Shown one piece after another: positions 1,436-61,971 of a stretch of DNA of 64,000 nt. Where the stretch lies: IMG/VR virus record IMGVR_UViG_3300018082_000009, positions 1,646 through 65,645 of that record; one strand, written 5' to 3'. A model generated the notes under the pieces. It worked only from the letters and a program-made list of their open reading frames with translations, had not been told where the DNA came from and searched no databases. The stretch is from a virus. The position numbers were made by a program, and so were the translations under genes. Within the stretch, counting starts at the first letter, position 1. Each line of letters opens with the position of its first letter.

Positions 1436-3391
1436 ATGCAATTCTTCTCATTCGGATTCGGCAACGAAGGCACAGGGTCTGTCGATGAACTCGGCGGCAA
1501 GGGTGCGGGCCTCCTGTGGCTGGCCAAGGAAGGCGTCCCGGTTCCTCCGGGGTTCGTCATCCCCACGTCGGTCTGGGCGGAGTACGACAAGAAGCCGAAG
1601 GGCACGATGAAGGCGATTGCCAAGGCCCTGCCCGCGTATCTCTACAAGCTGGAGGCGCACTTCGGCTATCTGCCGCTTCTCTCCGTCCGCTCTGGTGCCC
1701 GTGTCTCATGTCCCGGCATGATGGACACGATCCTCAACGTGGGGATCGATGACTCCAACGTGGCGGAGTGGGCTACTCGTCTTGGCCCGAAGTGCTTCGG
1801 TGATTCGTTCCAGCGTCTGGTCGAGATGTACGGCTCGGTGGTCAAGGGTCTGCGTCGGGAGTCGCTGAGTGGCACCCTGAAGGCTTCGCTGGAGTCTTAC
1901 GAGGCTCAGACGGGTGAGACGTTTCCCGCTGCCGAGGCGCAGTTGCTGGGTGCGATTGAAGCGGTCTTCAAGTCATGGGACAACAACCGTGCGGACGAAT
2001 ACCGCAGGATGCATGGCTACGACCGCTCGTGGGGTACGGCCGTCACGGTGCAGGCCATGGTCTTCGGCAACATGGACGAGCAGAGCGGGTCTGGTGTCCT
2101 CTTCACCCGGAACCCGGACACAGGCGGCATGATCGTCACGGGTGAGTGGCTTCCGAATGCACAGGGCGAGGATATCGTGGCGGGCATCCGTACTCCTCAG
2201 CCGCTGGAGACGATGAAGCTGTGGAGCCCGGTGGTCCACGATGCTCTGCTCGATACGGTCATCAAGCTGGAGAACCTGAAGCAGGATATGCTGGACATCG
2301 AGTTCACGATTCAGAGCGGGGCGCTCTATCTCCTGCAGGTTCGCAGTGGCAAGCGCAGTGCGACGGCGGCTCTGAAGATTGCGGTGGACATGGTCAAGCA
2401 GGGGCTGATTGATGCTCCGACCGCTGTGAAGCGTGTCTCAGCGAAGCAGTTCGACTTGGCCCAGATGGCCTCGATTGACCCGAAGTTCACCAAGGAGCCC
2501 GCGTATCAGGGCATCGGAGCCTGCTCTGGTGTGGTGACGGGCAAGCCAGTGTTCAGCCGCAAGGATGCAATTGAGTGCAAGGAACCCTGCATCCTCGTGA
2601 CGCACGAAACCACGCCGGATGATATCGCCGGAATGGCGGCAGCGGTGGGCGTGCTGACGATGGTCGGCGGGCTCACGAGTCACGCGGCAGTCGTTGCACG
2701 AGCGATGGACCGGGCCTGTGTCGTGGGCGTGGGTGCCTCTATCGAGGCGTTCAAGGACATCGAAGTCCTGAGCCTCGACGGAGCCACGGGCCGCATCTGG
2801 GCGGAGGTGGTCCCTATCATCAACGGGCAGACCAACGGGGTGGTGCGAGACTTCAACGCGCTGGTGTCGGATGCACTGGGCATCGTGCCGGTCATCTTCT
2901 CAGCCCCAGAGTATCCGATGAAGGAAGCCCTGCTCTACTTGGGCGACCAGATTCTGGACCCCATCAAGGCGGCGGAGACGGTGGTCAATGCCACAGCCAA
3001 GGTCGGCAAGCTCTATCTGGATCTGGTGCCCTCGACGGAAGAGACACGCTTCCTGAATCTCGTGACGGCGCACGACCACACGGCCAAGGTGCTGGACATC
3101 CTTCACGCGGTGATGCCCGATGGCAATGATGGTCTGGTGTTGGTGGTGAGTGACAAGTACGCGACCAAGTTCTCACGCATCGTGCCGGGTGCGGATCTGC
3201 GAAGCATCGTGATGTCAGGGGCTGAACTGGTCCTCGACGGGATCGATACGACGGACCCGGCCGTCCAGCGGGTGCTGGCGTGGCGGCAGGCGGAGGGTTG
3301 CACGGTGGTATCCATCGGCAAGTACCTCGCAGGTAGCAAGTCCATGATTTCAGTGTCGCAGGCACTGCAGGTTCTTGGGGAGGGTGCATAA
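1436..3391 (+). CDS. PPDK-like phosphotransferase: ATP-grasp and phospho-His swivel domains, lacking the PEP/pyruvate TIM barrel
   Basis: GGKGAGL, PVPPGFVI, LLSVRSGA, PGMMDTILNVG, AVTVQAMVFGN, SGSGVLFTRNP, NAQGEDIVAGIRTP, DIEFTI..LYLLQVR; GGLTSHAAVVAR (His at 2681). The last ~185 aa do not resemble the PPDK C-terminal barrel. Start placed at ATG 1436 by RBS. Confidence 0.9.
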   Translation: MQFFSFGFGNEGTGSVDELGGKGAGLLWLAKEGVPVPPGFVIPTSVWAEYDKKPKGTMKAIAKALPAYLYKLEAHFGYLPLLSVRSGARVSCPGMMDTILNVGIDDSNVAEWATRLGPKCFGDSFQRLVEMYGSVVKGLRRESLSGTLKASLESYEAQTGETFPAAEAQLLGAIEAVFKSWDNNRADEYRRMHGYDRSWGTAVTVQAMVFGNMDEQSGSGVLFTRNPDTGGMIVTGEWLPNAQGEDIVAGIRTPQPLETMKLWSPVVHDALLDTVIKLENLKQDMLDIEFTIQSGALYLLQVRSGKRSATAALKIAVDMVKQGLIDAPTAVKRVSAKQFDLAQMASIDPKFTKEPAYQGIGACSGVVTGKPVFSRKDAIECKEPCILVTHETTPDDIAGMAAAVGVLTMVGGLTSHAAVVARAMDRACVVGVGASIEAFKDIEVLSLDGATGRIWAEVVPIINGQTNGVVRDFNALVSDALGIVPVIFSAPEYPMKEALLYLGDQILDPIKAAETVVNATAKVGKLYLDLVPSTEETRFLNLVTAHDHTAKVLDILHAVMPDGNDGLVLVVSDKYATKFSRIVPGADLRSIVMSGAELVLDGIDTTDPAVQRVLAWRQAEGCTVVSIGKYLAGSKSMISVSQALQVLGEGA

Positions 3392-3392
3392 A

Positions 3393-3659
3393 ATGGCGCT
3401 CAGCATCGGAGTCTCAGTTGGGAGTAAGATTGATGTGGGGGGCCATATGCTGCACGTGAAAGCATTGGTCCACCCCAACGTCGTGGTGGTCACGCTGGAC
3501 CGGGGAGAAGAGATTGTCATCAGCGAGGCCAGAGCCGTGGAGATTCTCCCCGGCGTGAAAGTGCAGTCTGGGTCCGGGGGCAACCGGTTGGCCTTCCATG
3601 CGGCCAAGTCGATTCGGATTTCCCGTGTTGGGGAACCATCGACACCTAAAGGGGAATGA
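3393..3659 (+). CDS. small beta-rich protein, weakly CsrA-like
   Basis: N-terminus MALSIGVSVGSKIDVG and C-terminus RLAFHAAKSIRISR resemble the two ends of CsrA. Confidence 0.4.
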   Translation: MALSIGVSVGSKIDVGGHMLHVKALVHPNVVVVTLDRGEEIVISEARAVEILPGVKVQSGSGGNRLAFHAAKSIRISRVGEPSTPKGE

Positions 3660-60326: not shown

Positions 60327-60740
60327 GTGCTACGCTTTGCCCAATCCGTGGAAGAGGACAGCTACGAGCCGCCACCCCGGTGCGTGACGTTGACTCGATA
60401 CTTCTATCCGCCTGCTGAGCGGCCTGCTCTGGAGCTACAGGCCCAACTCCAAGCCGCAGAAACGGTGGTGTCCCATGCGATTGTGCGACCGCTACAGACG
60501 CATCAGAGAGAAGCCCTGCTCTGTCTGGTGTCCGACCTGTTGGCAGGGTTGGCGTCCTGCCCATCGGTGCCGTTTGAGAAGTCGTTTCTGGTACTGGCCC
60601 TGAACAAGGGGATGTTCCAGATCGCGGCGGCGGAATTCCACGTCTTCTGCTATGCCGAGGGCAAGGTCCAGACCCGGCTCTGGGAGAAGCGGAAGGCGGA
60701 GCAATATCTGTTCAGTCGAGGGCACTTGCTATTCGAATGA
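60327..60740 (+). CDS. degenerate GH24 lysozyme-like protein
   Basis: C-terminal half PL...Q.EAL...S.L...LNKG....AA.EF......GK....L..KR.AE..LF; catalytic E/D/T region not recognisable. Confidence 0.65.
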   Translation: MLRFAQSVEEDSYEPPPRCVTLTRYFYPPAERPALELQAQLQAAETVVSHAIVRPLQTHQREALLCLVSDLLAGLASCPSVPFEKSFLVLALNKGMFQIAAAEFHVFCYAEGKVQTRLWEKRKAEQYLFSRGHLLFE

Positions 60741-60783
60741 ACAAATGCTAGACTAGCGGGCAGTCACCAATGGAGTGGATTTA

Positions 60784-61971
60784 ATGCTGGATTTCGTTAC
60801 TGCCCACAAGGCGCATCTCCCGTTCATCGCGGTCCACACAGATGATCCGGTCAATGTCCGGACCATTCTGCAACACCTGTCCGGGAAAACCTTGCAGCCA
60901 TTGCCCACCGCAAAGAATGCCCCCATTGGTGACATGTATCTCTGGTGGACGGAGGATCCGGCCACGGTCACCACCGACATGTACCGGAAGCTGTGTGCCT
61001 CGACGGCGAGTTGTGCGGTCATCAACCCGGAGAAGCCGAACCTGCTGGTCTACGACACCGGCATCCTGCAGACCCCAACCAAGTTCTTCCGGCAATACCT
61101 CAACGATTTCGTGGCAGAGGAGCAGATTGAGCCTGTTGTCCAGCAGTTGAAGGGCCTCTCCCTGAAGACCGCCCAAGAGGTGGTCCAGTTGACCATGGCC
61201 CGGTGCAATTCGATTGCACCACAGGAGATTCGGAAGACCCGGCAGATGATGGGGGGAGAAACACCCGGCCTCTCCCAACTGGACACGGACTACGACTTCT
61301 ACGAGTGGCCTCAGCCCCTGCAGGAGTGGCTGACGTTGAACGAGGGGTACTTCCTCGACCTGAACACGCCTCCGCAACTGGTGCCCCGTGGGCTCCTCCT
61401 TGGCGGCGAGCCCGGAGTGGGCAAGTCCATGGCCGCTGCCGTGCTGGCCAAGCATTGGGACGTGCCGCTCTTCCGGTTGGACATCTCGACCAGCCTCAAC
61501 CGGTATCTGGGGGAGTCGGAGAGTCGGATTGCCCGGAACCTTCAGGTCATCGAGCAGAATGCCCCGTGCGTGTGGTTGTTGGACGAGGTGGAGAAGCTGT
61601 TCATCTCCAATGGGGATGAGGGCACCACCCAGCGGATCCTCAGCCAGATGCTCTGGTGGCTCCAGTACCACAAGTCACGGGTGCTGACCATCATGACCAC
61701 GAATAACCTTGCAGGAATCCCGAAGGAGTTGTATCGTGCGGAGCGTCTGGACAAGGTACTCCATCTGGAGAAGCTGTCCCTCTCCGCTGCCAAGTTGTTC
61801 GCAGCCAAGGTCTATGAGTCGGTTCTGCAGCATGCGCCACCGCCCAAGCGGCTGAAGGCGGTGCGGGAACTGTTGGAGACGAGCGACAAGGGCATGTATG
61901 CCCATGCTGAGGTGCGGGTGATGGTCTACGATGCAATCAAGAGCAACGGCTGGGCAAAAGAGGGCAGTTGA
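60784..61971 (+). CDS. AAA+ ATPase (Ycf46-like)
   Basis: GEPGVGKS Walker A, LLDEVEK Walker B, YLGESE, MTTN, RAERLD. Confidence 0.88.
   Translation: MLDFVTAHKAHLPFIAVHTDDPVNVRTILQHLSGKTLQPLPTAKNAPIGDMYLWWTEDPATVTTDMYRKLCASTASCAVINPEKPNLLVYDTGILQTPTKFFRQYLNDFVAEEQIEPVVQQLKGLSLKTAQEVVQLTMARCNSIAPQEIRKTRQMMGGETPGLSQLDTDYDFYEWPQPLQEWLTLNEGYFLDLNTPPQLVPRGLLLGGEPGVGKSMAAAVLAKHWDVPLFRLDISTSLNRYLGESESRIARNLQVIEQNAPCVWLLDEVEKLFISNGDEGTTQRILSQMLWWLQYHKSRVLTIMTTNNLAGIPKELYRAERLDKVLHLEKLSLSAAKLFAAKVYESVLQHAPPPKRLKAVRELLETSDKGMYAHAEVRVMVYDAIKSNGWAKEGS

Follow-up and report, generated by a model that had tools for sequence, protein, structure and literature searches.

Why would a virus keep one short palindrome at about one place in every 3 kb of its genome, within genes as well as between them? 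The question is raised by a 64,000-nucleotide stretch of DNA (the window), bases 1646-65645 of the 68,105-bp IMG/VR virus contig IMGVR_UViG_3300018082_000009, in which an initial annotation had noted dispersed copies of a TGCA-N6-TGCA palindrome and had proposed a dimeric phage protein as their binder. We find that these palindromes are under purifying selection at the level of the DNA. On balance they are probably stand-alone docking sites for a homodimeric DNA-binding protein of the phage, most likely a member of the Summit gp066 family, which carries a predicted ParB/Noc/KorB-type domain.

The contig is incomplete (about 59% complete), and its DNA is also present in freshwater-sediment and soil metagenomes. 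All long open reading frames (ORFs) of the window lie on the + strand, and its GC content is about 58%. Among its genes are a PPDK-like kinase, two dual-specificity phosphatases, a family-A DNA polymerase, a portal protein, several very large head-module proteins, a prohead protease, the capsid protein, and tail and lysis genes. The closest named relatives are the Stenotrophomonas siphophages Summit, DLP5 and DLP3 (genus Delepquintavirus) of about 96 kb, and the complete metagenomic relatives are 98-120 kb long. IMG/VR metagenomic relatives are designated here by G-numbers; G001 and G003 belong to the window's subclade and are its nearest complete genomes, and G005 is partial.

A palindrome in excess and under selection

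The pattern TGCA-N6-TGCA occurs 18 times in the window, against 1.47 ± 1.11 expected from dinucleotide shuffles, and 16 of the 18 sites start with TGCAAT; the copy at 35479 is probably due to chance. In the whole record, 20 sites lie within one mismatch of TGCAAT-NN-ATTGCA where 0.2 would be expected, and the reversed control pattern has no site. All of the positions named in the initial annotation were located, including TGCAATTAATTGCA at 13499, 24769 and 60302, TGCAATTGAGTGCA at 2566, 15356 and 41650, TGCAATCAATTGCA or its complement at 5989, 17658, 44121, 48072 and 53197, and a tandem pair at 36104/36114, whose two members overlap.

The initial annotation had claimed that selection acts on the DNA, and had named as checks an excess over a codon-preserving background and conservation at synonymous positions in relatives. 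Both bear the claim out. In a synonymous-codon shuffle, in which protein and codon usage are preserved, the 16 in-gene sites compare with 1.64 ± 1.06 (maximum of 5 in 300 shuffles), and the result is the same in G001 and in Summit. Among codons for the same amino acid in pairwise-compared orthologues, 90 of 99 are nucleotide-identical within the motif and 340 of 647 in the 60-nt flanks (Fisher p = 1e-14); these pairwise comparisons are not independent of one another, but the effect is nonetheless large.

Positional conservation points the same way, with in-gene sites found at the same codons in orthologues of only 30-60% identity. A site lies near codon 385 of the PPDK-like kinase in four of five genomes and near codon 105 of the second phosphatase in four genomes. 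In three genomes the tape-measure gene holds one 67 codons (stop included) from its end, in proteins that are 29-37% identical and whose flanks are otherwise unalignable; several tail genes likewise keep a site at fixed codons in their orthologues. The kinase of G001, which has no site, retains the peptide A-I-E with its codons switched to GC-rich synonyms. The recurring QLIA, QSIA and AIEC peptides that had been noted at in-gene sites are real. It is noted that in-gene copies favor the frame xTG-CAA-TYR-ATT-GCA, which gives QLIA or QSIA, because coding limits the other two: with most cores, frame 0 would run into TAA or TGA, and frame 2 requires a cysteine. Taken with the codon-shuffle excess, this synonymous and positional conservation shows that the sites are under DNA-level purifying selection.

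Sites in the window

The sites are as follows, in window coordinates.

2566..2579: TGCAATTGAGTGCA, within the PPDK-like kinase gene at codon 384 of 658; the same codons hold a site in G003, G004 and Summit.
5989..6002: TGCAATCAATTGCA, within the second dual-specificity phosphatase gene at codon 109 of 260; orthologous sites in G001, G003 and Summit.
9143..9156: variant TGCATTCAAGTGCA, within the DNA polymerase gene at codon 239 of 792; G003 has TGCAATCAGTTGCA at the same codons.
13499..13512: perfect TGCAATTAATTGCA, 12 nt past the stop of the preceding ORF (13149-13487).
15356..15369: TGCAATTGAGTGCA, preceding the portal gene (start 15428) by about 60 nt and otherwise inside only a doubtful 60-codon ORF.
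17658..17671: TGCAATCAATTGCA, within a head-module gene for a 643-residue protein, at codon 124; orthologous site in G001.
21500..21513: variant TGCAATTGGCTGCA, within a gene for a 1146-residue protein, at codon 762.
22673..22686: one-mismatch copy GGCAATTGATTGCA, 16 nt into a gene for a 611-residue protein; G003 has the identical 14-mer in the same place, and in G001 the site is just upstream.
24769..24782: perfect TGCAATTAATTGCA, 25 nt into an ORF for a 301-residue protein.
28604..28617: one-mismatch copy TGCAATTGATTGCC, within a MuF-like gene for a 1109-residue protein, at codon 729.
29966..29979: intergenic TGCAATCAGTTGCA, flanked at a distance of 14 nt on either side by a -10-like hexamer (TAAAAT) upstream and the ATG at 29994 downstream.
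32742..32755: weak copy GGCAACTGGTTGCA with three mismatches, preceding the prohead protease gene by 25 nt.
36104..36127: a pair of sites that overlap, so that three TGCA words follow one another at 10-bp intervals; a hairpin and T-run lie immediately 5' and an AAGGAG ribosome-binding site and ATG immediately 3'.
37972..37985: TGCAATTGAATGCA, within a tail-completion-type gene for a 165-residue protein, at codon 26; orthologous sites in G001, G004 and Summit.
41650..41663: TGCAATTGAGTGCA, sharing bases with the stop codon of the gene before it; a tail gene for a 380-residue protein begins 60 nt downstream, and G001 has a site upstream of the orthologue of that tail gene.
44121..44134: TGCAATTGATTGCA, within a gene for a 155-residue protein, 54 codons (55 with the stop) from its end; position shared with G001 and G003.
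48072..48085: TGCAATCAATTGCA, within the tape-measure gene, 67 codons (stop included) from its end; same distance from the end in G001 and G004.
53197..53210: TGCAATTGATTGCA, within a tail gene for a 689-residue protein, at codon 129; orthologous sites in G001 and G003.
60302..60315: perfect TGCAATTAATTGCA, immediately 3' of a stop codon and abutting an AAGGAG ribosome-binding site; the first lysis-region gene starts (GTG) 5 nt further on.
61932..61945: variant TGCAATCAAGAGCA with two mismatches, followed after 22 nt by a strong TTGACA-N17-TATAGT promoter.

The copy at 32742, reported earlier as a near variant upstream of the protease gene, has three mismatches and owes its inclusion here solely to the site that 8 of 13 relatives carry at that position. 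The portal gene also has a site within 200 nt upstream in 8 of 13 relatives. Several sites do stand just upstream of module starts, as the initial annotation had it, but about 12 of the 20 window sites lie deep within genes.

Form and spacing of the sites

The general form of the site is TGCAA-N-YR-N-TTGCA, a palindrome of 14-16 bp. The outer TGCA words, 10 bp apart, are invariant, and the inner bases vary by genome:

Window's clade: TGCAAT-YR-ATTGCA.
G014 and G016: TGCAAT-TA-ATTGCA.
Vibrio phage VH2_2019: TGCART-TA-AYTGCA.
L338C and HJ05: TGCAAC-NN-GTTGCA.
PaMx31: TGCAAR-CG-YTTGCA.
G005: TGCACT-YR-AGTGCA.

The center of the site is mostly a pyrimidine-purine step, as would be expected if a dimer contacts two major grooves in succession and bends the intervening DNA. 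The orientation of the central dinucleotide (CA or TG on the coding strand) was tried as a further feature and dropped; G004 leans toward CA (33:19), and G000, G001 and G003 show no lean. The asymmetric copies had been described as starting with TGCAAT on the + strand. In this record copies with an imperfect right half indeed outnumber those with an imperfect left half by 8:1, but the ratio is 18:13 in G001 and 8:13 in G003. The orientation rule is thus not a property of the system, and an asymmetric site with one preferred orientation, as in a stoperator, was not found.

Across 179 sites from five genomes, no information is seen within ±60 nt outside the palindrome, save for a weak T before it and a weak A after it. 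The site therefore stands alone, with no second conserved element at a fixed distance, and this speaks against the late-gene activator element that had been offered as one possible function. Of the same 179 sites, 75 (42%) are intergenic or lie at most 45 nt from an ORF start, where only about 5-9% of the DNA is found; the others are deep in genes. The spacing is more even than random placement would give. The coefficient of variation of the gaps is 0.45-0.64 (p <= 0.0015) in this record, G001, G003, G004 and Summit, against about 0.96 for random sites, and the largest gap in those five genomes is 5-7 kb where random placement gives 8-13 kb. Four of six further cultured phages (VH2_2019, L338C, PaMx31 and RcZahn) have values of 0.40-0.62; in HJ05 and RcDurkin the evenness is not significant. 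The most regular run in any relative is found in VH2_2019, where nine successive sites (record 34194-50424) are 1.83-2.23 kb apart.

Distribution among related phages

A search with the capsid protein returned 80 related IMG/VR loci of 53-99% identity and 42-65% GC, most of them with 2-9 motif copies per 10 kb. Whole-genome counts are as follows:

Four complete IMG/VR relatives: 24, 11, 31 and 53.
Stenotrophomonas phage Summit: 37.
Rhizobium phages RHph_Y1_11 and L338C: 15 and 48.
Rhodobacter phages RcZahn and RcDurkin: 28 and 31.
Vibrio phage VH2_2019: 34.
Aeromonas phage HJ05: 18.
Pseudomonas phage PaMx31: 30.

Every whole relative counted thus carries 11-53 sites, and reversed-pattern controls give 0-2 across these genomes. 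The cultured hosts are Stenotrophomonas, Pseudomonas, Vibrio, Aeromonas, Rhizobium and Rhodobacter. A literature search on the motif strings returned no paper containing them and no published description of such a system. The papers on DLP3 and the Rhodobacter phages do not mention such a repeat, and neither do the abstracts on the Vibrio and Pseudomonas relatives.

A candidate binding protein with a predicted ParB-type fold

To look for the binder, Summit and 12 other complete genomes were compared by iterated profile searches. Three universal protein families have no known function. Two of them were set aside, the Summit gp056 family because it resembles a gp32-type single-strand-binding protein and the gp063 family because it resembles a PD-(D/E)XK nuclease. 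The third, the gp066 family, is present in all 12 other genomes; a Pfam search of the remaining universal proteins without known function yielded nothing useful. In the closest complete relative the gp066 gene lies at the end of the replication and recombination module. The family has a conserved helix-turn-helix-like stretch and, in some lineages, tails rich in lysine, alanine and proline.

The predicted model of gp066 has a predicted local distance difference test (pLDDT) score of about 80-90 over residues 30-160 and appears to contain a central helix-turn-helix domain of the ParB type. Its best structural match is Spo0J bound to parS (4umk; Z 9.9, root mean square deviation (rmsd) 2.9 Å over 111 residues), followed by Caulobacter ParB (6t1f, Z 8.7), Noc with its NBS site (6y93, Z 8.5), Noc (7ol9, Z 7.9) and KorB with its operator (1r71, Z 6.8). 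More than 20 entries of ParB, Spo0J, Noc, KorB or SopB match residues 40-165 of the model at Z 4.3-9.9; other matches stop at Z 3.6, apart from the Rubisco accumulation factor Raf1 (Z 6.4-9.4). The ParB_N domain (PF02195) is missing from the family, and N-terminal to the DNA-binding domain the model shows disorder or helices and lacks an alpha/beta domain. The PF02195 profile matches genes other than gp066 in Summit and G004 and none in G000, G001 and G003.

A homodimer of gp066 is also predicted, with a score of 0.72 against 0.00 for the best control, at least 84% agreement in contacts between runs and a partner pLDDT of at least 80. It should be mentioned that the calibration of this score is only rough, the 0.72 mark being reached by 20 of 30 solved one-chain pairs and by 1 of 23 single chains with our own alignment in use.

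The gp066 gene itself has a site within 200 nt upstream in 11 of the 13 genomes. Among 23 gene families found in at least 10 of the 13, portal and protease follow with 8 each, and the rest have at most 3. A distance of 7-9 nt usually separates this site from the -35 box of the gene, a layout that is the pattern of an autoregulated DNA-binding protein.

By eye, and confounded by phylogeny, the residues beside a conserved R-K-A in the putative recognition helix of gp066 track the inner bases of the motif. Y-RKA-T/M is found with a TTAA center in G014, G016, RcZahn and VH2_2019, and K-RKA-F with TGCACT in G005.

Several points weigh against gp066 as the binder. The link between protein and site would rest on the phyletic pattern, the predicted fold, the predicted dimer and the conserved upstream site, and the counts come from 13 related genomes and are not independent. 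The structural Z scores (6-10) fall in a range where helical proteins match by common arrangement, as seen from Raf1, which scores as high as ParB. All Foldseek E-values for gp066 exceed 0.01; the family has no Pfam or PDB sequence match, and its profile finds nothing below E = 0.2 among PDB sequences. The promoter of the candidate gene has no nearby site in G001 and G003, of the window's own subclade, or in the partial G005. Furthermore, the gene lies outside the window's contig, its presence in this phage being taken from relatives, and the role of the array is something that we infer.

Promoters, terminators and ribosome-binding sites

In G004, 10 of 22 strong TTGACA-type promoters have a site that ends 5-20 nt upstream of the -35 box; over G004 and G001 together the distance is 1-20 nt. 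Adjacent upstream sites are found at 5 of 26 promoters in G001, 2-3 of 23 in G003 and 0 of 7 in the window's partial genome; the sigma-70-like promoters of the window have no adjacent palindrome, unlike those of G004. Near-consensus sigma-70 promoters (TTGACA-N17/18-TAnnnT) stand at early-region gene junctions at window positions 1289, 1362, 3982, 4521, 6444, 15032 and 61968. Ribosome-binding sites are abutted by the palindromes at 29966, 36114 and 60302 of the window and by many in G004.

A few sites lie directly 3' of an intrinsic terminator. At 36104, downstream of the capsid region, the hairpin and T-run follow the gene after the capsid gene, and the same layout is seen in Summit (annotated terminator 6308-6338, site 6338-6351) and in G004. 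In an automatic test a terminator-like hairpin immediately preceded 8 of 264 sites where 2.2 would be expected, a weak enrichment, but this test is insensitive and missed cases found by eye as well as one annotated in Summit. The link to terminators is anecdotal.

Proposed mechanism

The selection on the DNA, the palindromic form, the positional conservation and the even spacing agree with a dimeric phage protein as the binder, as had been proposed at the outset. The mechanisms offered with that proposal hold in part. A ParB-type reading comes closest, since the best candidate has a predicted ParB/Noc/KorB-type domain; canonical loading of a clamp at parS is unsupported, the candidate having no CTPase domain. 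We propose with moderate confidence that the sites are occupied by a homodimeric phage protein whose DNA-binding domain is of the ParB type. With lower confidence, dimers next to promoters would modulate RNA polymerase, as KorB does from a promoter-proximal operator. Also with lower confidence, the whole array, in-gene sites included, may mark or organize the phage chromosome, for instance through bridges between sites or by drawing the DNA together in one location. Marking of the whole chromosome would explain why in-gene sites are kept far from promoters and why gaps above about 7 kb are avoided. Without a CTPase domain the gp066 protein cannot be a canonical sliding clamp, and bridging between sites or non-specific contacts through the basic tails would be the obvious alternatives to clamp sliding.

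A bolder reading, which we hold as possible but tentative, is that a ParB-type protein that lost or never had the CTPase clamp, together with the selected even array, forms a phage chromosome-marking system. It would be conserved across siphophages of 80-120 kb that infect alpha- and gammaproteobacteria and would act in lytic growth, with promoter control secondary. Such a system might gather replicating DNA, distinguish phage from host DNA or couple transcription to packaging, and the separate ParB_N-only protein of most relatives might be its detached clamp or CTPase half.

Alternative explanations

A different phage protein could bind the sites. We consider it unlikely that the binder is a MerR-type helix-turn-helix protein (Summit gp059 family) acting as a global transcription regulator, although this fold is a recognized sequence-specific one (Pfam MerR_1 E = 3e-8, PHROG 'transcriptional regulator'). 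The protein is encoded in the window's subclade (G001, G002, G003; in G001 at 110476-110937, between an SF2 helicase and a RecA-like gene) and in Summit, G004, G005, VH2_2019, L338C, PaMx31 and HJ05. Its recognition helix is well conserved among the TGCAAT genomes and differs in G005, whose half-sites are TGCACT. However, the protein is absent from G014, G016, RcZahn and RcDurkin, which have 28-50 strong sites, and in G014 and G016 the genes that flank its locus abut, leaving no room for it. Moreover, the recognition helix in Summit is unlike the others though the motif is the same, and no conserved site lies upstream of the gene.

Similarly improbable, in our estimation, is that the palindromes are operators of a lysogeny repressor, of the stoperator or P1 C1 type, that silence the entire genome of a plasmid prophage by obstructing both promoters and RNA polymerase during elongation; the repressor could even be the same ParB-like protein. 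The relatives DLP5 and DLP3 are temperate and DLP5 is maintained as a phagemid (PMC5834331, PMC7326821), four relatives bear a provirus label in IMG/VR, and the sites are spread evenly across transcribed DNA, beside promoters and, in a few cases, after terminators. The motif is, however, equally dense in the Pseudomonas Samunavirus and Vibrio relatives, which their abstracts describe as lytic. L5 stoperators are asymmetric and oriented, whereas the present sites are palindromic and the strand bias of this record is lost in G001 and G003. No CI/Cro-type repressor is shared by the genomes; HTH_3 proteins occur only in G014, G016, G006 and RcZahn, and as candidate binders they were rejected on that ground. 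The stoperator-like roadblocks suggested in the initial annotation are weakened by the same lack of a conserved orientation and by the many motif-bearing relatives whose abstracts call them lytic.

It is very doubtful that the sites are parS-like, with the phages' ParB_N proteins loading as canonical CTP-dependent clamps that slide and coat the genome. ParB_N-domain proteins are found in 10 of the 12 other complete relatives, besides Summit, and palindromes of 13-16 bp are bound by ParB, Noc and KorB alike. KorB acts by sliding from distal operators (PMC11790492). On the other hand, no ParB_N protein was found in G001, G003 or the window's contig, so that these proteins, not being universal, were rejected as the binder; the Summit one has no obvious helix-turn-helix (by eye only), and the universal ParB-like DNA-binding protein has no ParB_N domain. 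The 'packaged ParB-like modules' to which the initial annotation had tied its parS suggestion are likewise unsupported, the ParB_N search of this contig being empty.

The ParB_N protein is encoded at 69796-70548 in Summit, and orthologues are present in G014, G016, G006, VH2_2019, L338C, RcZahn, PaMx31, HJ05 and RcDurkin. In Summit and DLP3 its gene lies just upstream of the small-terminase-like and large terminase genes; the protein could be a detached partner of the DNA-binding protein or a part of packaging. In G001 its place is occupied by a phage Dam-type N6-adenine methyltransferase gene (1921-2496, NPPY motif).

Binding by a host dimer of the LacI/PurR/CytR or CRP/FNR type, which the phage would read or titrate, is highly unlikely. 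The shape of the motif, with its central pyrimidine-purine step, resembles what we take to be the LacI-family operator consensus, TGnAAnCGnTTnCA; likewise, the TGCAAACGTTTGCA-type sites of PaMx31 are presumably like a PurR box, and TGCAAC..GTTGCA of L338C and HJ05 like CytR half-sites. Nevertheless, the hosts span alpha- and gammaproteobacteria with a GC content of 42-65%, and we know of no single specific LacI-type regulator common to them. The inner bases also vary among the phage genomes compared, and no LacI-type helix-turn-helix (PF00356) is encoded in any of the 10 phage records searched.

There is very little chance that the element acts at the RNA level, whether as a hairpin, as a processing site or as a signal for translation, or that it acts as a promoter for phage-specific transcription machinery: the genes are all on one strand, so that every site is probably transcribed, and several sites abut a ribosome-binding site, but the arms pair as a 5-bp AT-rich stem at most (4 bp in asymmetric copies), the ±60 nt around the 179 sites hold no -10-like or other element at a fixed distance, in-gene sites far from gene starts are conserved equally strictly, and some sites are placed downstream of an intrinsic terminator but ahead of the next promoter, which favors a function in DNA rather than RNA.

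Also rejected as binder was the 109-residue protein encoded at 3656-3985 of the window, whose DLP3/DLP5 orthologue is annotated as a 'transcriptional repressor'; it is absent from VH2_2019, L338C, PaMx31, HJ05 and RcDurkin. Neither Pfam nor PHROG has a match to the protein, whose only homologues are close hypothetical proteins. Its model shows an N-terminal alpha-alpha-beta-beta-beta fold, which is not a helix-turn-helix, followed by a CxGxGCxxCG zinc-finger-like tail. No significant PDB match was found, the nearest being toxin-type ribonuclease domains (TM about 0.35), and the repressor label has no support.

Other features of the window

A family-conserved module at 1415-7502, adjoining the DNA polymerase gene, contains the PPDK-like kinase (ATP-grasp and phospho-histidine domains), the two dual-specificity phosphatases and proteins of 401 and 362 residues without assigned function. 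A free-standing HNH endonuclease gene (Pfam HNH_3) lies at 14712-15035, just upstream of the portal region. The interval from portal to protease is about 15 kb in the window and 1.4 kb in Summit. In the head module, the 611-residue protein (22657-24492) has a weak match to the PI3/PI4-kinase catalytic domain (Pfam E = 4e-8), and the 1109-residue protein (26419-29748) combines a MuF-like head-morphogenesis domain, a 2H (2'-5' RNA ligase-type) phosphoesterase domain and a PFIN-like region.

Implications

If docking by a ParB-type phage protein is the right explanation, a large and widespread phage group shares a genome-wide DNA-protein system that is absent from their genome papers. The group includes cultured phages whose hosts are Stenotrophomonas, Pseudomonas, Vibrio, Aeromonas, Rhizobium and Rhodobacter, and some of these phages are considered for therapeutic use. 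Coding sequence is constrained by the system at tens of positions in each genome, and the even spacing of one site every 2-3.5 kb points to a function on the scale of the whole chromosome. It would provide a simple, testable case of a ParB-type DNA-binding domain that works without a CTP clamp. Since the site is known, a candidate protein is named and the phage-host pairs can be cultured, the organization of the phage genome in the cell becomes directly testable. For annotation, the motif marks boundaries of transcription units and explains odd rare-codon runs such as QLIA, QSIA and AIDC.

Comparison with known systems

The stoperators of L5 and cluster A phages and the C1 operators of P1 consist of tens of short operators for one phage protein, spread through the genome within and between transcription units. 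Those are asymmetric sites that serve prophage immunity, the stoperators being oriented with transcription. The present array has a similar layout, but its sites are palindromic, have no conserved orientation and also occur in relatives whose abstracts describe them as lytic.

Noc of Bacillus subtilis binds a palindrome scattered over the chromosome, also in genes, and organizes DNA rather than single promoters. Both the scattered palindrome, in-gene copies included, and the predicted fold (Z 8.5 and 7.9 for 6y93 and 7ol9) are alike here. Noc differs in its ParB_N CTPase domain, its membrane-targeting helix and its role in cell division; neither feature is recognizable in the phage protein, and the phage sites are much denser and more regular than the Noc-binding sites (NBS).

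A phage genome with several separate palindromic sites for a ParB-type protein is known from prophage N15, which has four separate IR sites for SopB (PMC7205306), and the best structural match of the gp066 model is likewise to a ParB-type complex, Spo0J-parS. N15 has only these four sites, a ParA partner and a function in plasmid partition, whereas here there are tens of sites, also in phages described as lytic in their abstracts, and no ParA was identified, though no search was aimed at one.

KorB and its operator OB on the IncP plasmid RK2 (PMC11790492) share with the present system a ParB-family DNA-binding domain, predicted here, and a short palindromic operator repeated around the replicon. 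Copies of the operator are found both within a few bp upstream of a -35 box and far from promoters, and an OB 4 bp upstream of the -35 box lets KorB repress (PMC11790492); the phage sites lie 1-20 bp upstream at many promoters. KorB requires its N-terminal CTPase domain for clamp formation and sliding and works with KorA, while the phage candidate has no such domain and no known KorA-like partner, no search for one having been made, and the phage arrays, with 11-53 sites per 80-120 kb, are evenly spaced and mostly in genes. The present system is set apart from all of those compared by the lack of a CTPase domain in its candidate protein, by the number and regularity of its sites, by their location mostly in genes, and by its occurrence both in temperate phages and in phages that their abstracts describe as lytic.

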